NCBI GenBank assembly: GCA_965235115.1
Contig: OZ249436.1
Span: forward strand, 6,636,001 to 6,696,000
DNA from: Laetmonice hystrix
Lineage: Eukaryota
Direction: 5' to 3'
DNA length: 60,000 nt
Both the position numbers and the translations under genes were made by a program. The notes below the pieces were generated by a model. It saw only the letters and a list, made by a program, of their open reading frames with translations, made no database searches and was not told the origin of the DNA. Below, piece by piece: positions 1-58,300 of the stretch; within the stretch, counting starts at the first letter, position 1, and every line of letters starts with the position of its first letter.

Positions 1-1520
1 TGGAACACCATGCCCCCCAAAATTGAAAAAAACAGATCGGAGAAAAAAAAGTTCAATATTCAAACATTTTTCATGCGAAGGTTATTTCTTGTAACTTCTT
101 GATTTTTGGGGATTTGATTTATGGCTATATGAGGTGCATGTAGACACCAAAATAATCTTCCAAAAATAGACACAGGTGGCGCCACTAGTGGCCAAAGTTG
201 GCCGATCGCTAAATATGACCCATTTTGAGAGGCCATTTTACCTATGTGGCCAAGGTGGAAGAGCGTTGGGATATTTTTTCCTTGATAGTGCACATTTTTG
301 CCATTAACAAAACCTAAGTCCCTAATCCCTTCCATACTTCCTTCCCTGTCAAATAATTTTTCAAATAATATCCATTTGAGTAAAGTTCACGCTGTGATGG
401 GATATGAGGTACGTTGTTTTTATATCATAAAATTTTTATTATTTGCCAAAGAATTTTTGAAAGTGGTAAATATCCTAAACTGTTGGTCTTTTGTAGATTT
501 TTGTCTTTAAATTAATTAGTTAATTAATTAATTATAAATAAATTTATAAATTTATTTTAATTAATTAATTAAATTAATTAATTAAATTATTGATTTAATA
601 ACTTAAAATCATAAAATATAATAATATAAGATAAAATATAAAAATAAATTATAAATTTATTTTACAATTAATTAATTACTTTAATAATTAATTTAAATAC
701 AAAAATCTTCAAAAGACCAACAGTTTAAGCTATTTACCACTTTCAAGAATTCTGTGGCAAATAATAAAAATTTTATGATATAAAAACAATGTACCTTGTA
801 TCTCGTCACAGCGTGAACTTTACTAAAATGGATATTATTTGAAAAACTATTTGACAGGGAAGGAAGTATGGAAGGGATTAGGGACTTAGTTTTCTTTAAT
901 GTCCAAAATGTGCTTTATCAAGGAAAAAATATCACAATGCTCTTCCACCTTGGCAACATAGGCAAAATGGCCCCTCAAAATGGGTCATATTTAGCGATCG
1001 GCCAACTTTGACCACTAGTGGCGCCACCTGTGTCTATTTTTAGAAGATTATTTTGGTGTTTGCATGCACTTCATATAACCATAAATCAAATCCCCAAAGA
1101 TCAAGAAGTTACAAGAAGGAACTTTTGCATGAAAAATGTTTGAATATTGAATTTTTTTTTCTCCGATGTGTTTTTTTCTATTTTGGGGGGCATGGTGCTC
1201 CAAGGAATAAGCAGAGAATTAAAATGTTATTACTTTTTCCTGGTCTCTACATATTAAAGTTTCAGTGGGCAGAAATACAAGTTGCCAGCTCTTATAATTT
1301 CTGAATGGCAGCCCTCTAAAAACGGCTCAGAAAAAGAAGCGTTTTTTTCAGGGGTACCCCCACCCAAACTCATGGGGGTATAACATGGGAACCGTTGGGA
1401 ATTTGGAAGAAAAATTTCAGAAATGTACTTCAGATATATAGATCTAACTACATGCCAAATAAGAAAAAAATTGGAGATGGTCACCCGGGAGCCACTGGTC
1501 GATTTGACATGGAATGACCC
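1..1520. mobile_element. Foldback (long-TIR) non-autonomous DNA transposon, copy 1 (left 326 bp outside window)
   Basis: Same sequence as 4568-6087. Ends GGAATGACCC at 1520 followed by TTTA; near-pure AT centre ~505-700. Confidence 0.9.
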
Positions 1521-1728
1521 TTTAAGCTGTGAACGTGATGTCCCAATGCTGGCCGGTATCAGATATTCTCAAACATACAGTGTACTCAAAATGTCAGATA
1601 CCATGTATAGTTTAAGGTTTTGTTCGATATAAGACGGTTATAGACGTATGCAAGGAAAGAACACGTATTACAGTATATAAAATATGGATATAATATTAGC
1701 AAGATCGATTCTTTTCTGATGTTGTGGG

Positions 1729-1744
1729 GGTCCTGAGAAGGACC
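1729..1744 (-). terminator. Replication-dependent histone 3' stem-loop with downstream purine-rich element
   Basis: Minus strand GGTCCT-TCTC-AGGACC ~30 nt after the H2B TGA, followed by CCCACAACAT and CAGAAAAGA (HDE-like). Confidence 0.85.
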
Positions 1745-1773
1745 ATTAGTTTCGTTTCGTAGATTGAGCCTCT

Positions 1774-2141
1774 TCACTTGGAGCTGGTGTACTTGGTGAC
1801 GGCCTTGGTGCTTTAACTGACGGCGTGCTTAGCCAGCTCACCGGGGAGGAGCAGACGGACGGCCATCTGGATATCCCGGCTGGTGATGGTAGAGCGGCGG
1901 TTGTAGTGGGCCAGACGTGGAGCCTCGGCTCGAAGATGTCGTTCACAAACGAGTTTATGATAGACATGGCCTTGCTGTAGATACCCGAGTCTGGGTGGAC
2001 CTGCTTCAACACCTTGTAGATCTAGATGTAGATGGAGTTGGAGTCCCTCCTCCTCTTCTTGCGCTTCTTGTCGCCCGTGCGGACAGCGTTGGCCTTGCTA
2101 GCGGCCTTCTTAGCTCCCTTCGACGCTGGTTTTGGCGGCAT
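1774..2141 (-). pseudogene. H2B: Histone H2B pseudogene (copy 1)
   Basis: Reads [70 protein letters not shown], then a 10-nt deletion, then ..[49 protein letters not shown]. Lesions: 6-nt insertion with TAG, frameshift, second stop at the AVSE glutamate codon. Confidence 0.97.
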
Positions 2142-2398
2142 GGTGACTAAGATGCCAGCCGGTGCGTTTTCTTTATATATGGAGTCGTATGCAAATTAGC
2201 AGCGAGTTCATACTGAAAGGAGCCATGCATGGTTCATCCGCGATCCGTTGGTGGCGCCACCGTACAGTGCTGCGGTTCGACCCATGTTTGAACTCGCTCA
2301 TTCGCTTGCATATAAACGCGGAGAACACCGGCCTCGCCATTGTGCTAGACATTGTGCTAGACAGATATTTTGCTAACACACCCATCCAAACAATCATC
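2142..2398. promoter_or_regulatory. Divergent H2B/H2A-type promoter with putative H2A 5'UTR
   Basis: H2B side: TATATAAA (minus, 2172-2179) and octamer ATGCAAAT 2189-2196, the classic H2B element. Plus side: TATAAA 2311-2316, cap-like CATT ~2338, A/C-rich leader ending CAAACAATCATC. Mirror motifs GCGAGTTCA and TGAACTCGC occur on the two sides. The H2A assignment is inferred from the usual H2A-H2B pairing. Confidence 0.7.
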
Positions 2399-2660
2399 AA
2401 GTTGTCCGATGGAGGATTACAAGTGGCGTCCATTAGAGAAAGGCGTAAAACCAAGAGAATTAAAATAGCATTATCCCTAATCTTGGGAGAAGGAACTGAC
2501 AAATTGTATATTGGTCGAGAACTTAGATATGAGCGGAATGAGTTAAGTAGTAACTTGAGTCCACATAGTGAAATAAAACCTAGTTTTTTGAGGAAAGCGA
2601 TAGAAGATTGGTTTTATTTTCGTTCTGCATTTCCAAGTGTTAAAATTATTGACGACTTAA
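2399..2660 (+). mobile_element. Fragment of L1/Tx1-clade non-LTR retrotransposon ORF2 (region C-terminal to RT)
   Basis: Translation KLSDGGLQVASIRERRKTKRIKIALSLILG...NLSPHSEIKPSFLRKAIEDW resembles the GGL-x-[VL]..I....A..[IL]K motif and the PHS..P.F...W segment of L1/Tx1 ORF2. Recognised by eye; 3' limit approximate. Confidence 0.55.
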
Positions 2661-3067
2661 GCGTTTTAAATCATTCCCTGGCCAGTACAAGCATAAATTT
2701 GTGCGCACTGAAGAAGGTAGCAATGGCATTCATAGGAAAAATTTCAAGTTGGCACACACACTCAGCTTCTCAAAGTAGACAGAAACGTGGAGATGTTGGT
2801 ATAAAACCGGCTATTTCTGTACACAATTGGCTGGAAGTGTACGAAAGTATATATTCTCTGAAAGCTCTATTAGTTCTCTATCAGATGAGACCAGAAAATC
2901 ACAGATTTATGCATTTCGTTTCATTTTATTTGACCTTGAGGCGCTGAAAGTCTGAAAATAGGCAATTGTACATGGTTCAAAATTATCACCCATATATCGC
3001 CACCCGTGTGACAGACAGTGTACTTTGAAGCGCTGCTAGGGACACGGACGGGGCACCAGAGGTTTAA
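2661..3067. mobile_element. Possible right end of a piggyBac-type non-autonomous element (duplicate at ~7228-7630)
   Basis: Ends GGGGCACCAGAGGTTTAA, a piggyBac-like end before TTAA. No matching left TIR found. Confidence 0.25.
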
Positions 3068-3131
3068 TGAAATATACCACTAGGACGGCGACATGTTTGA
3101 GTGTTTCAATAAATGTCAGGCCAATCAGAAA

Positions 3132-3316
3132 CGTGCGGACGGCGTTGGCCTTGCTAGCGGCCTTCTTATCTCCCTTCGACGCTGGTTTTGGCGGCATGAT
3201 GACTAAGGTGCCAGCCGGTGCGTTTTCTTTATATATGGAATCGTATGCAAATTAGCAGCGAGTTCATATTGAAAGGAGCCATGCATAGTTCATCCGCGTT
3301 CCGTTGGTGGCGCCAC
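3132..3316 (-). pseudogene. H2B: Second 5' H2B fragment (first ~22 codons, ATG at 3197) plus TATA/octamer promoter
   Basis: Diverged direct copy of ~2076-2260 with octamer and TATA retained. Confidence 0.9.
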
Positions 3317-4240
3317 ATATTATACCCCGACGCCGTGCCTGCTAGGGAGCATGTTTGGCGCTGCAGTCGCTTGGCAGGCTGCCGCCGTCACGTGTGATGC
3401 CAAGGCCAATCAGCAGCCATGTATGAACTCGCCGTTTCAGAAATCTAAGCTACTTGCTAGTTACCGGCCCATTTGACCAGCAAGATGGCGTCGGTCGTCA
3501 TAACCCTAGATTTCATCATTTTCAGTAATATCTTATAATAGAAATTATTTACAATAACAATTTATGGATAGTCGTTGCACTTTTAGTCCCGCAGACAACA
3601 TATCCAAATCCAAGCTTTGGGTTGTGGCTACAAAATGCTTATATCTTATCATAAATAAGGTGGTTCGCGCGGGACACCACTCTGGAGGTCCAGCGCCACC
3701 TCGATACTATATAAAGCCCGCACTACCACTGGTAATATGTAGTGAACGGTCACGTCTGAAAGTATCGCTTAGATAGACTCGGGTCTGTCTCCCATGAACT
3801 GGCTGATGGGTCGGAAGGAGCTTGCATGGGTCCACGTTCGGTCGTAGCCTGGCAACACGTGCTGATGGTCAAACACTGACAGTATGATGAGTCGCTTAGT
3901 GTCCACTTGGAGGCGGGAGGGTGCAAGCCTGAGAAAAGTGCGACATGACTCTTCTAAAGGGATGTAGCAATACAACCCGTTCCCCGTCAGTGGGTCGATC
4001 TGTGGCATAGTTCCGTATGGCGGCTACCATTGGGTTATCACGTGTTGTATCAGACGCCAGATCTTCGAACGGTAGGATGAACGAATCTAGTCGACTAAGA
4101 CCAAGTTCACTTTTTTTTAGGTTAATTAAAATTCCTCCATCATCTGAAATTCAACAAACGCTACCGTTCTCCGTTTTGTGCAAGGCTCGTGACGACCGAC
4201 CAGGATTGATTATGAGAAGTGTGTGGTTGTGAATGTTTTA

Positions 4241-6087
4241 GGGTCATTCCATGTCAAATCGACCAATTTTGGAAAATCTTCCCGGGGGACCATCTTCGAT
4301 TTCTTTCAAATTTGGCATGCAGTTAGACCTGTGTATTTGCAGTACAATCCTAAAATTCTGCTCCAAAATACCCAACGGTCTCCGAGTTACACCCCGATAA
4401 GCGAGGGTGGGGGTACCCCTGAACAAAGCACGTTTAATTCTGAGCCATTTTTAGAGGGCTATCATTCAGAAACTGTAAGAGCTGGCAACTTGTATTTTTT
4501 CCCACTGAAACTTCAATATGGAGAGACCAGGAAAAAGCAATAACATTTTATTTCTTTGCTTATTCCTTGGAACACCATGCCCCCCAAAATTGAAAAAAAC
4601 AGATCGGAGAAAAAAAAGTTCAATATTCAAACATTTTTCATGCGAAGGTTATTTCTTGTAACTTCTTGATTTTTGGGGATTTGATTTATGGCTATATGAG
4701 GTGCATGTAGACACCAAAATAATCTTCCAAAAATAGACACAGGTGGCGCCACTAGTGGCCAAAGTTGGCCGATCGCTAAATATGACCCATTTTGAGAGGC
4801 CATTTTACCTATGTGGCCAAGGTGGAAGAGCGTTGGGATATTTTTTCCTTGATAGTGCACATTTTTGCCATTAACAAAACCTAAGTCCCTAATCCCTTCC
4901 ATACTTCCTTCCCTGTCAAATAATTTTTCAAATAATATCCATTTGAGTAAAGTTCACGCTGTGATGGGATATGAGGTACGTTGTTTTTATATCATAAAAT
5001 TTTTATTATTTGCCAAAGAATTTTTGAAAGTGGTAAATATCCTAAACTGTTGGTCTTTTGTAGATTTTTGTCTTTAAATTAATTAGTTAATTAATTAATT
5101 ATAAATAAATTTATAAATTTATTTTAATTAATTAATTAAATTAATTAATTAAATTATTGATTTAATAACTTAAAATCATAAAATATAATAATATAAGATA
5201 AAATATAAAAATAAATTATAAATTTATTTTACAATTAATTAATTACTTTAATAATTAATTTAAATACAAAAATCTTCAAAAGACCAACAGTTTAAGCTAT
5301 TTACCACTTTCAAGAATTCTGTGGCAAATAATAAAAATTTTATGATATAAAAACAATGTACCTTGTATCTCGTCACAGCGTGAACTTTACTAAAATGGAT
5401 ATTATTTGAAAAACTATTTGACAGGGAAGGAAGTATGGAAGGGATTAGGGACTTAGTTTTCTTTAATGTCCAAAATGTGCTTTATCAAGGAAAAAATATC
5501 ACAATGCTCTTCCACCTTGGCAACATAGGCAAAATGGCCCCTCAAAATGGGTCATATTTAGCGATCGGCCAACTTTGACCACTAGTGGCGCCACCTGTGT
5601 CTATTTTTAGAAGATTATTTTGGTGTTTGCATGCACTTCATATAACCATAAATCAAATCCCCAAAGATCAAGAAGTTACAAGAAGGAACTTTTGCATGAA
5701 AAATGTTTGAATATTGAATTTTTTTTTCTCCGATGTGTTTTTTTCTATTTTGGGGGGCATGGTGCTCCAAGGAATAAGCAGAGAATTAAAATGTTATTAC
5801 TTTTTCCTGGTCTCTACATATTAAAGTTTCAGTGGGCAGAAATACAAGTTGCCAGCTCTTATAATTTCTGAATGGCAGCCCTCTAAAAACGGCTCAGAAA
5901 AAGAAGCGTTTTTTTCAGGGGTACCCCCACCCAAACTCATGGGGGTATAACATGGGAACCGTTGGGAATTTGGAAGAAAAATTTCAGAAATGTACTTCAG
6001 ATATATAGATCTAACTACATGCCAAATAAGAAAAAAATTGGAGATGGTCACCCGGGAGCCACTGGTCGATTTGACATGGAATGACCC
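4241..6087. mobile_element. 1847-bp foldback non-autonomous DNA transposon, Sola2/Sola3-like (GGG...CCC termini, 4-bp TSD TTTA)
   Basis: Starts GGGTCATTCCATGTCAAATCGACCA and ends TGGTCGATTTGACATGGAATGACCC. Imperfect inverted arms of ~830 bp surround an AT-only core (~5075-5265). TTTA lies at 4237-4240 and 6088-6091, and a single TTTA marks the empty site near 8993. Superfamily inferred from termini and TSD only. Confidence 0.88.
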
Positions 6088-6295
6088 TTTAAGCTGTGAA
6101 CGTGATGTCCCAATGCTGGCCGGTATCAGATATTCTCAAACATACAGTGTACTCAAAATGTCAGATACCATGTATAGTTTAAGGTTTTGTTCGATATAAG
6201 ACGGTTATAGACGTATGCAAGGAAAGAACACGTATTACAGTATATAAAATATGGATATAATATTAGCAAGATCGATTCTTTTCTGATGTTGTGGG

Positions 6296-6311
6296 GGTCC
6301 TGAGAAGGACC
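6296..6311 (-). terminator. Histone 3' stem-loop (copy 2)
   Basis: Identical to 1729-1744. Confidence 0.85.
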
Positions 6312-6340
6312 ATTAGTTTCGTTTCGTAGATTGAGCCTCT

Positions 6341-6708
6341 TCACTTGGAGCTGGTGTACTTGGTGACGGCCTTGGTGCTTTAACTGACGGCGTGCTTAGC
6401 CAGCTCACCGGGGAGGAGCAGACGGACGGCCATCTGGATATCCCGGCTGGTGATGGTAGAGCGGCGGTTGTAGTGGGCCAGACGTGGAGCCTCGGCTCGA
6501 AGATGTCGTTCACAAACGAGTTTATGATAGACATGGCCTTGCTGTAGATACCCGAGTCTGGGTGGACCTGCTTCAACACCTTGTAGATCTACATGTAGAT
6601 GGAGTAGGAGTCCCTCCTCCTCTTCTTGCGCTTCTTGTCGCCCGTGCGGACGGCGTTGGCCTTGCTAGCGGCCTTCTTAGCTCCCTTCGACGCTGGTTTT
6701 GGCGGCAT
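6341..6708 (-). pseudogene. H2B: Histone H2B pseudogene (copy 2)
   Basis: Same lesions as copy 1 (DSYSIYM*IYK, 10-nt deletion, AVS*), so inactivation predates the duplication. Confidence 0.97.
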
Positions 6709-6965
6709 GGTGACTAAGATGCAAGCCGCTGCGTTTTCTTTATATATGGAGTCGTATGCAAATTAGCAGCGAGTTCATACTGAAAGGAGCCATGCATGGT
6801 TCATCCGCGTTCCGTTGGTGGCGCCACCGTACAGTGCTGCGGTTCGACCCATGTTTGAACTCGCTCATTCGCTTGCATATAAACGCGGAGAACACCGGCC
6901 TCGCCATTGTGCTAGACATTGTGCTAGACAGATATTTTGCTAACACACCCATCCAAACAATCATC
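6709..6965. promoter_or_regulatory. Divergent H2B/H2A-type promoter (copy 2)
   Basis: Duplicate of 2142-2398. Confidence 0.7.
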
Positions 6966-7227
6966 AAGTTGTCCGATGGAGGATTACAAGTGGCGTCCAT
7001 TAGAGAAAGGCTTAAAACCAAGAGAATTAAAATAGCATTATCCCTAATCTTGGGAGAAGGAACTGACAAATTGTATATTGGTCGAGAACTTAGATATGAG
7101 CGGAATGAGTTAAGTAGTAACTTGACTCCACATAGTGAAATAAAACCTAGTTTTTTGAGGAAAGCGATAGAAGATTGGTTTTATTTTCGTTCTGCATTTC
7201 CAAGTGTTAAAATTATTGACGACTTAA
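6966..7227 (+). mobile_element. L1/Tx1-like ORF2 fragment (copy 2)
   Basis: Duplicate of 2399-2660 (DGGLQVASIRERLKTKRIK). Confidence 0.55.
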
Positions 7228-7694
7228 GCGTTTTAAATCATTCCCTGGCCAGTACAAGCATAAATTTGTGCGCACTGAAGAAGGTAGCAATGGCATTCAT
7301 AGGCAAAATTTTAAGTTGGCACACACACTCAGCTTCTCAAAGCAGACAGAAACGTGGAGATGTTGGTATAAAACCGGCTATTTCTGTACACAATTGGCTG
7401 GAAGTCTACGAAAGTATATATTCTCTGAAAGCTCTATTAGTTCTCTATCAGAGACCAGAAAATCACATATTTGTGCATTTCGTTTCATTTTATTTGACCT
7501 TGAGTTGCTGAAAGTCTGAAAATAGGCAATTGTACATGGTTCAAAATTATCACCCATACACGCCATCCGTGTGACAGACAGTGCACTTTGAAGCGCTGCT
7601 AGGGACACGGACGGGGCACCAGAGGTTTAATGAAATATACCACTAGGACGGCGACATGTTTGAGTGTTTTAATAAATGTCAGGCCAATCAGAAA

Positions 7695-7879
7695 CGTGCG
7701 GACGGCGTTGGCCTTGCTAGCGGCCTTCTTAGCTCCCTTCGACGCTGGTTTTGGCGGCATGATGACTAAGGTGCCAGCCGGTGCGTTTTCTTTATATATG
7801 GAGTCGTATGCAAATTAGCAGCGAGTTCATACTGAAAGGAGCCATGCATAGTTCATCCGCGTTCCGTTGGTGGCGCCAC
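7695..7879 (-). pseudogene. H2B: 5' H2B fragment plus promoter (copy 2)
   Basis: Duplicate of 3132-3316. Confidence 0.9.
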
Positions 7880-9105
7880 ATATTATACCCCGACGCCGTG
7901 CCTGCTAGGGAGCATGTTTGGCGCTGCAGTCGCTTGGCAGGCTGCCGCCGTCACGTGTGATGCCAAGGCCAATCAGCAGCCATGTATGAACTCGCCGTTT
8001 CAGAAATCTAAGCTACTTGCTAGTTACCGGCCCATTTGACCAGCAAGATGGCGTCGGTCGTCATAACCCTAGATTTCATCATTTTCATTAATATCTTATA
8101 ATAGAAATTATTTACAATAACAATTTATGGATAGTCGTTGCACGTTTAGTCCCGCAGACAACATATCCAAATCCAAGGTTTGGGTTGTGGCTACAAAATG
8201 CTTATATCTTATCATAAATAAGGTGGTTCGCGCGGGACACCCCTTTGGAGGTCCAGCGCCACCTCGATACTATATAAAGCCCGCACTACCACTGGTAATA
8301 TGTAGTGAACGGTCACGTCTGAAAGTATCGCTTAGATAGACTCGGGTCTGTCTCTCATGAACTGGCTGATGGGTCGGAAGCAGCTTGCATGGGTCCACGT
8401 TCGGTCGTAGTCTGGCAACACGTGCTGATGGTCAAACACTGACAGTATGATGAGTCGCTTAGTGTCCACTTGGAGGCGGGAGGGTGCAAGCCTGAGAAAA
8501 GTGCGACATGACTCTTCTAAAGGGATGTAGCAATACAACCCGTTCCCCGTCAGTGGGTCGATCTGTGGCATAGTTCCGTATGGCGGCTACCATTGGGTTA
8601 TCACGTGTTGTATCAGACGCCAGATCTTCGAACGGTAGGATGAACGAATCTAGTCGACTAAGACCAAGTTCACTTTTTTTAAATAATTCACCTCTCATAC
8701 TTTTAATCACTCATATAATTGACAAGTGATGCCGAGGTCAGCCTAATAAAGCAGATGGTGCTTTTAGACAGGACGTTGTTTCACTGAAAGGCGTCTGTCT
8801 TTGACCAAGTCGGTCGTAAGGCACGTCAGCTGAACGCCCCCCCCCCATCGCCACCACCTCATGGCGGCGTACCCAAGGTTAATTAAACTTCCTCCATCAT
8901 CTGAAATTAAAAAACGCTACCGTTTTCCGTTTTGTGCAAGGCTCGTGACGGCCGACCAGGATTGATTATGAGAAGTGTGTGGTTGTGAATGTTTTAAGTT
9001 GTGAACGTGATGTCCCAATGTTGGCAGGTATCAGATATTCTCAAACATACAGTGTACTCAAAATGTCAGATACCATGTATAGTTTGAGGTTTCCTTCGAT
9101 ATAAG

Positions 9106-9494
9106 TTATACATGTCCATATTATCATGTTATCATGTTGATGACCGTCATCGATGTGAAAACTAATTTAGGAGTAATGCGTCCTTGATAAAGGGTGACCC
9201 AGCAAAATTCAGGATGGAAGTATACATTTGGCACGCTTTGAGAATTTTTGTTGGTTGTATAACTTGGGGTCCCTCACAGAGAAATGAAAGTGACATCTTA
9301 AGTTGAAGGATTTATACATGTCTGAACGCATGGAGAATAATACGAAAGACGGCCGACCGGCCGGGAATTGATGTCATCGTTTCTGAACAAATTCCAGCAA
9401 ATCTCGATTATCGTGAATATAGAAGGTGCACAGAAATACTCCTGATGCATGTAAAAACTATAATTACTATATAACTCCGCGGTTATAGGTTATA
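9106..9494. other. 389-bp segment flanked by 19-bp direct repeats, absent from units 1 and 2
   Basis: AGGTTTCCTTCGATATAAG at 9087-9105 and 9495-9513; units 1 and 2 have a single related copy (aggttttgttcgatataag). Confidence 0.75.
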
Positions 9495-9605
9495 AGGTTT
9501 CCTTCGATATAAGACGGCTATAGACGTATGCCAGGAAAGAACACGCATTACAGTATATATATGGATATAATATTAGCAAGATCGATTCTTTTGTGATGTT
9601 GTGGG

Positions 9606-9621
9606 GGTCCTGAGAAGGACC
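9606..9621 (-). terminator. Orphan histone 3' stem-loop (unit 3, no upstream H2B)
   Basis: ggtcctgagaaggacc with the same flanks as copies 1 and 2. Confidence 0.8.
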
Positions 9622-9798
9622 ATTAGTTTTGTTTGTGGGATATACCAGAGCATAATATCTATACAATTCTTTTACAGAGAGATGCTCAATAGGATCGGAA
9701 TTTTAAAGAAACATTTGTTTACATGTCGTTATGGGAATGAAAATGCCATGTAATGTTTCAGGCAGAGAGTTTAAACATGTTGATGGGAACAGAGAGTC

Positions 9799-47321: not shown

Positions 47322-47661
47322 AGGTGCTATTCGTGAACAAAAATTCAATTTTTTTATTTTTAATTTTGTTGACGTTTATGTGATCCCACCTATCATGGAA
47401 ATAGATTCACAACAAAGGAAATCAAAATTTTTCATGGATAACGGCACAAATGTGGCTCTCTCAGAACGCCTGTGGAGACCCTGACACGCCCCACCACAGG
47501 AAATGGCTCTATCTCGGTGCGCACCGAGATAGGTTTCAAATGCTGCACACAAACTAATAGAAGGTTTATCAGGCCAATGGTATCGGTAGGAATTTTTTCT
47601 AGTACTATGTGCACAATGTATGATAGGAGAAATGCCATTCTGTGCGAGACGAATAGCACCT
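47322..47661. mobile_element. 340-bp MITE, Kolobok-type (TTAA TSD, AGG...CCT ends)
   Basis: TTAA(47318-21)-AGGTGCTATTCGT ... ACGAATAGCACCT-TTAA(47662-65); 13-bp perfect TIR. Confidence 0.85.
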
Positions 47662-48059
47662 TTAAAGGATTTATGGCTTAATGTTTTTTCTTTCCGTGAG
47701 TTATGTATAATTTTATTTTTCTCATATCTACCGTTGTAAAGACGAGGGTCTATAACTTTGAAATCCTTAAAATGAGAAAAAACATCAATTTCTTCGACCC
47801 GTATCACAGTCTTGGCTCTCCGTGCATATTTCTGAGACCCTCGCTTGCCGTCAAACTCATGCTACCACTTGTTATAAGGTGCAAATCTTGCCAGAAATGT
47901 AGCTCATGTCATAACAAAAGAGCGCGTGTCACCGACAGAATCACCTATTGATGCTTACCGATTCGTCTCGAGACTAGCCCGAGAATTTGCGAGGTTTAAA
48001 GATATCTGGTAATACGAGAGGGCCGGGAATCTGCTGGAACACTGTCTTTGCTGTCCGTG

Positions 48060-57999: not shown

Positions 58000-58300
58000 C
58001 ACTGTGGGAATGGCGTTTAGATTTTAAACACAATCCTAAACACATTTTGTCCCCATTTTTTAACACATCATTGGTCTAAACATGTCAAGGGCACAAGTCT
58101 TGAACTGTCTGTGGAAGTAAATCATGATACAAAAATGTTACAAACGTGTTTAGGAATATGACACAATATGGATCATGTTTAGATGTGTGCCATGTTTACA
58201 GGCGTTTAACTCTTGACATGTTTTGACCAATGATGTGTTAAAAGAGTGGGGACACAAATGTGTTTAGGATTGTGTTTAAAATCTACCCAATTTGGCCACA
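58000..58300. mobile_element. ~300-bp palindromic (foldback) MITE, possibly CACTA/CMC-like
   Basis: TAGATTTTAAACACAATCCTAAACACATTT..CATCATTGGTC.AAACATGTCAAG (from 58018) is mirrored by CTTGACATGTTT.GACCAATGATG..AAATGTGTTTAGGATTGTGTTTAAAATCTA (to 58285). Left end CACTGTGG; outer limits approximate. Confidence 0.75.

Follow-up and report, generated by a model that had tools for sequence, protein, structure and literature searches.

A histone H2B/H2A promoter joined at the H2A start codon to a probable Tx1-type ORF2 fragment within a high-depth composite repeat of Laetmonice hystrix

Overview

The window, a 60,000-nucleotide stretch of the Laetmonice hystrix assembly (contig OZ249436.1, positions 6,636,001 to 6,696,000 of the forward strand), contains a decayed piece of a histone gene cluster that is broken at the A of the H2A ATG and adjoins a fragment very probably derived from the ORF2 of a Tx1-type retrotransposon. 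We consider it likely that the fusion is one old, untargeted junction, now inert, that was multiplied as the cargo of a repeat of non-autonomous and probably DNA-transposon-like type. In this best reading, a non-autonomous repeat would have captured and spread a histone promoter together with a scrap of a LINE, which is of modest interest. The coordinates of the features are collected in Table 1.

Table 1. Features of the composite repeat and its surroundings in the window
Feature	Position	Strand	Basis and remarks
Histone 3′ stem-loop of the H2B pseudogene	1704..1749	−	Rfam RF00032, 24 bits, E 0.0037, below the gathering score of 34
H2B pseudogene	1774..2141	−	Two in-frame stops and one frameshift (translation); weak Pfam Histone match in one frame, E 0.0015
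Divergent H2B/H2A promoter and H2A leader	2142..2399	+	Sequence; intact H2A start in a loose end
H2B TATA	2171-2180	−	Sequence
Octamer-like motif ATGCAAAT	2189-2196		Sequence
H2A TATA (TATAAA)	2311-2316	+	Sequence
Cap-like CATT	2338-2341	+	Sequence
12-bp duplication	2339-2362		Absent from one read contig
H2A leader end CAAACAATCATCA	2387-2399	+	Sequence
Probable internal Tx1-type ORF2 piece (post-RT thumb region, ~80 codons)	2401..~2650	+	Donor-like contigs and protein tests; cut on both sides; 18-bp deletion between 2507 and 2508
High-depth non-coding repeat module	2660..3120		Adjoins the Tx1 piece at its right end; other contigs have another left flank at 2660
Second, partial copy of the H2B 5′ end and promoter	3132..3316	−	96% identity to 2076-2260
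Right arm of an 18-bp inverted pair	3490..3507	−	Possible carrier end; copy 2 at 8053-8070
Left arm of an 18-bp inverted pair	4183..4200	+	Also 8939-8956
Nested 1.85-kb foldback DNA element	4241..6087		Self-inverted match; empty site near 8993; also 1-1521
Second promoter/Tx1 junction copy	6709..7217	+	Junction at 6966; product of the 4,567-bp tandem duplication

Histone portion and the break at the H2A start codon

As an earlier note on this DNA had described, a second TATA box, a cap-like site and a leader are all present opposite the H2B pseudogene. Octamers have a role in H2B promoters, and a similar motif lies in the divergent promoter. Position 2399 is the A of the H2A ATG, and the window sequence diverges from intact H2A after it. 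The earlier note had proposed aligning the leader with an intact cluster, and H2A does follow the leader there. In read contigs from a sample containing the DNA of the window, intact H2A (M-S-G-R-G) directly follows CAATCATC, and the window copy is therefore broken at the A of the H2A start codon. The claim that H2A was replaced at this codon is borne out by a loose end in X3 behind 2381, in which an identical leader is followed by M-S-G-R-G codons (one contig among the 24 listed of 408 loose ends). The intact H2A start, together with a promoter contig that is ~12% different from the window copy, provides an identifiable parent of the captured host sequence.

No H2A remainder was found in the window by a six-frame search with ten short histone motifs, which gave only two unplaced 4-residue PVGR matches. 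Just beyond the break, positions 2403-2415 resemble the intact H2A start at 9 of 13 letters, counted by hand, with an offset of 3 bases. This likeness may have guided the join, and it could also have arisen by chance, at a few percent by hand estimate.

Identity of the sequence downstream of the break

The frame GGLQVASI..RIK..PHS..PSF...W, to which the earlier note had drawn attention, is present from 2399 and reads KLSDGGLQVASIRER-KTKRIK...PHSEIKPSF...W. Because standard searches showed no Tx1 similarity, references were gathered by an RT-motif scan of metagenome contigs (109 loci) and by two protein searches. The resulting set is labelled Tx1-type by homology to P0109 (named Transposon TX1 149 kDa protein) and not by a tree. 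When the whole piece was aligned glocally to 14 Tx1-type thumbs, the mean score had a z of 4.3 and was reached by 0 of 600 shuffles (1 of 600 without P0005). The corresponding z values of the controls were 0.0 for plant L1 (n = 7), 0.5 for mammal L1 (n = 2), −0.6 for four RTE-like sequences with one plant L1, and −0.4 for others (n = 5). By these scores, the piece has post-RT homology to Tx1-type ORF2 and none to the control clades. The Tx1/L1-like origin proposed earlier for the replacing DNA has thus gained considerable ground, in the form of a very probable derivation from Tx1-type ORF2.

Individual comparisons varied in strength. The piece is colinear with residues 857-930 of P0005, a protein with RVT_1 and zf-RVT, at 30% identity over 74 columns and 204 residues after the RT motif. 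This pairwise score was reached by 2 of 3,000 shuffles, while 4 of 150 shuffles under BLOSUM62, and 15 of 150 under BLOSUM45, attained the best pairwise score among 124 proteins. A profile of the 14 sequences built without the query gave 4.8 bits (9 of 5,000 shuffles), and 0 of 5,000 shuffles reached its score once six X were placed at the gap described below. In a further test with six X at the gap, none of 1,500 shuffles and none of 160 natural pieces reached the score. Weak results came from the 14-sequence HMM without P0005 (77 and 34 of 5,000 shuffles) and from a coral-heavy 135-sequence profile (~1 bit; 122 of 5,000 shuffles as is, 38 of 5,000 with X).

The protein alignment opens a gap after GEGTD, and read contigs hold 18 extra bases between 2507 and 2508. 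Read in frame in a sister copy, these bases begin with a stop, at a place where the references have an invariant Trp. The position of the gap and the 18 missing bases form an independent check, which agrees with the Tx1 alignment. Compared with P0005, the piece lacks ~230 codons along with the 3′ untranslated region and any tail, and it contains neither an RT domain nor an APE endonuclease. Of the 13 listed differences within the piece, 11 were put to a synonymous-site test (2 beside the gap were dropped); 4 were silent and 7 changing, an uninformative split.

Other searches with the piece were negative. No match was obtained in Pfam, the ESM Atlas, PDB sequences or a fold search (Foldseek, using a single-sequence AlphaFold model with a pLDDT of 55). 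A word-indexed search of longer proteins yielded 693 candidates, none at E ≤1; hhalign returned a probability of 1%; and direct tblastn against 112 fetched loci gave nothing significant. Relatives of the piece were found neither in metagenome contigs nor in genome contigs, and relatives of P0005 were not found in viral contigs. The single match of a phmmer search on 1.84 billion protein representatives was P0001, a low-complexity repeat protein that was rejected as a relative, since it matches residues 84-125, outside the Tx1 piece. A SNORD116 match at 2575-2667 (E 0.069, below gathering) was treated as chance.

The chimera has no evident coding capacity. Beyond the leader, the nearest ATG is in another frame and opens 19 codons, and the first in-frame ATG, at 2723, lies beyond the Tx1 piece. 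As the piece has no in-frame ATG, no retroelement protein is expected from the histone promoter, and the earlier suggestion of retroelement sequence placed under an S-phase histone promoter fails as far as a protein product is concerned. A 266-codon open frame at 2147-2944 is not regarded as a gene, since it runs across three unrelated modules and is interrupted by frame-breaking indels in sister contigs.

Read contigs across the junction

Six public runs match part of the region, with no RNA run among them, and contigs of four of these were mapped onto 2142-3130. They come from no more than one sample, which may be the source of the assembly. The rows listed comprise 24 of 408 loose ends, 32 of 2,656 pieces and 40 of 189 differences, and the summed depths given below are not copy numbers.

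Donor-like contigs of 950, 1,559 and 2,111 nt (depth 137, 398 and 390) align only at 2401-2604 or 2401-2647 and are ~12% different from the window. The alignment starts at 2401 in three of the four runs, preceded by other sequence of up to 1.3 kb, and the longest contig continues ~570 nt beyond 2647. These contigs are likely to represent the donor family of the Tx1 piece, and the piece in the window is an internal stretch truncated on both sides. Among the rows listed, 2401 is the only 5′ cut point.

The junction itself occurs in multiple diverged copies. Contigs that bridge it (2310-2453; depth 465 in X2 and 391 in X3) are off the window at 15 letters in ~144 (~10%). Joints from 2491-2524 to 3017 were present at depths of 52-1,267; since one of them retains the 18 bases lost in the window, these joints probably represent sister versions of this chimera. 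The histone piece was broken and rejoined at several further points, as seen among the rows listed in a joint that leads from 3106 back to 2153 (depth 799) and in loose ends at 2145, 2160-2164, 2260 and 2314.

In X1 to X3, summed depth was 27,000-153,000 over the H2B core promoter (2175-2306) and peaked at 107,000-141,000 in the module at 2660-3120, compared with 270-1,100 in the far part of the Tx1 piece; many single contigs had depths of 20-90. The depth of 27,000-153,000 for the H2B core promoter piece with its TATA box and octamer-like motif (2153-2314 and 3200-3316) is well in excess of the 5,500-9,100 over the leader region, which suggests that the histone promoter fragment is carried by a very abundant repeat. 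At such high depth, this piece could seed promoter motifs across the genome.

Tandem duplication and the putative carrier

Positions 1-4117 equal 4568-8680 at 99.15% identity, which is a 4,567-bp tandem duplication. As the block was duplicated in tandem, the junction at 6966 does not count as a separate event. Positions 8876-9634 contain a third, partial copy, which is older and has the left modules and the histone stem-loop in common, without H2B. A further histone 3′ stem-loop, the third, lies with its downstream flank at 9581-9626 on the minus strand; no H2B coding sequence adjoins it, and no minus-strand frame of at least 110 codons occurs near it.

The inverted arms are complementary at 15 of 18 positions, and the pair 4183-4200/8053-8070 (also 3490-3507/8939-8956) encloses the histone and Tx1 modules. 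A search of genome contigs with the right-arm pattern gave no match. Because homology between copies continues ~64 bp outside it, the left arm may not be the true end of the carrier. The carrier resembles a non-autonomous DNA element family whose cargo varies; this class is given tentatively, because no target duplication is visible at the inverted pair and because of the homology outside the left arm. Outside the right arm, at 3707-3720, there is a TATA-like site (CTATATAAAG) with no histone or Rfam gene after it. The nested foldback element has long inverted arms and an AT-rich center, and its target duplication reads TTTA or a TTAA variant.

Origin of the junction

In the most likely scenario, an animal non-autonomous composite repeat would have captured a histone-cluster piece consisting of H2B with its 3′ flank, the divergent promoter and the H2A leader. 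Once, long ago, the H2A side would have become linked at its start codon with an inner part of Tx1-type ORF2, either when an untargeted retrotransposition formed its 5′ junction, or through template switching or end joining during mosaic assembly. The right side of the Tx1 piece may then have been cut back and fused to the high-copy module at at least two points, and the chimera, which encodes nothing, would have been copied as cargo, decayed by ~10% and become tandemly duplicated here. This agrees with donor-like contigs that start at 2401 with other upstream sequence, with the divergence of the bridging contigs, with the sister forms that carry a shorter Tx1 piece and with the breakage of the histone piece at several other points. 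It also fits the Tx1-type homology, the lack of an H2A remainder and of an in-frame ATG, the tandem duplication, and the depth of promoter and module (10,000-150,000, versus 20-90 for many single contigs). However, a break exactly on the A of an ATG is improbable for any single random break, the carrier ends and target duplication are putative, and the read evidence consists of contigs from at most one sample, with 24 of 408 loose ends and 32 of 2,656 pieces listed. Moreover, many Tx1 families are target specific according to the accessible text of PMC4494074, and the long unitigs and low depth (137-398) of the donor family are as expected of a low-copy, target-specific family.

In a rival reading, the donor would be a low-copy Tx1 family specific for the H2A start, i.e., for a multicopy protein-coding gene transcribed by Pol II. 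Its endonuclease would cut close to or at the start of H2A in the tandem cluster, and the window would hold a captured, decayed 5′ junction, a 5′-truncated insertion having been picked up later with H2B and the promoter while its 3′ part was lost. The exact break at the ATG, the Tx1-type homology and the even, low-depth, unbranched donor contigs favor such a family, as does precedent, with Tx1 families targeting U2, U5, 5S, microsatellites and transposons (PMC4494074, accessible text). We nevertheless consider it unlikely. There is no 3′ junction, tail, target duplication or H2A remainder, the rows listed (24 of 408 loose ends, 32 of 2,656 pieces) show a single 5′ cut point, and several other breaks fall within the same 330 bases of the histone piece. 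The Tx1 piece does not extend to a 3′ end of the element with remaining target sequence behind it; it ends at ~2650 and adjoins another repeat. In addition, no H2B match was found in the 112 fetched loci, a weak argument, as these come from other organisms and are mostly short. The earlier idea of an ordinary 5′-truncated insertion of an H2A-start-specific family is not supported for a fragment that lacks these parts, has one listed cut point and sits in a high-depth composite repeat. If the donor did target the H2A start, the targets of sequence-specific retrotransposons would include a protein-coding gene array in addition to transposons, simple repeats and RNA genes, with a new endonuclease specificity. 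The donor might instead target the high-copy non-autonomous DNA element and have inserted into a histone-carrying copy, with later deletions removing the H2A coding sequence and both Tx1 ends and so producing the junction at the ATG. Tx1L, Tx1-Mar and Tx1-9_AMi are precedents in DNA transposons (accessible text of PMC4494074), the piece is embedded in a very-high-depth repeat in which deletion variants are common, and the likeness of 2403-2415 to the H2A start would fit. But that likeness is offset by 3 bases, gives no clean microhomology and is possibly due to chance, and no Tx1 3′ end is seen in the module at 2660-3120, so that we judge this origin rather improbable. It is very unlikely that the piece is not Tx1 ORF2 at all, with chance motifs and another low-copy repeat as donor. 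The Pfam, word-indexed, phmmer, Atlas, PDB and fold searches without a relevant match, the hhalign value and the 135-sequence profile would be in keeping with this, but the colinear P0005 match, the glocal scores with and without P0005, the test with six X at the gap and the coincidence of the 18 missing bases with the invariant Trp argue against it. A template-switch chimera formed from mRNA was ruled out because the left part includes a TATA box and the divergent H2B gene.

Relation to known systems

Histone orphons are dispersed, decayed copies of histone genes, and the isolated H2B pseudogene with its stem-loop and promoter outside the tandem cluster resembles them. The window copy differs in being part of a multicopy composite and in its fusion to a retroelement piece. 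The closest working model is provided by the multicopy Pack-TIRs of animals, such as Ssk-FB4 and Pack-hAT-N8_XT, in which host gene pieces, including 5′ regions, are amplified in a non-autonomous repeat with mosaic breakpoints (PMC8277862, accessible text). Here, however, the carried sequence comprises a histone H2B gene, its promoter and a LINE fragment, and terminal repeats and target duplications are only suggested.

According to the accessible text of PMC4494074, Tx1 elements target U2, U5, 5S, microsatellites, satellites, DNA transposons and LTR elements; examples are Keno at U2, Kibi and Koshi at microsatellites, Tx1L in Tx1D, Tx1-Mar and Tx1-9_AMi. In that study, a family was considered target specific when >20% of its flanks lay in one target. 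The window resembles the target-specific Tx1-clade LINEs in that Tx1-type ORF2 sequence adjoins a conserved point of a multicopy gene. It differs in that no 3′ end, target remainder or independent insertions are seen, and the targets named in the accessible text of PMC4494074 include no histone gene. The word "histone" does not occur in the accessible portions of PMC4494074, PMC8869645 and PMC5035012, and those of PMC12477816 and PMC2861651 contain nothing on histone targeting. Neither a histone-targeting LINE nor a histone-carrying Pack element was found in the literature accessible in this way; subscription journals, Repbase and supplements may contain one. Sequence look-ups in other stretches of DNA yielded nothing that resembles this region.

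Other features of the window

Between 11217 and 56938, the window contains ~fifteen unrelated minisatellite arrays with units of ~30-100 bp, several of which give long repetitive open frames. A 161-codon open frame at 47379-47861 on the minus strand is non-repetitive and protein-like in composition, and is possibly a fragment of a transposon gene. A 268-bp imperfect palindrome, 75% self-complementary, is located at 58018-58285.
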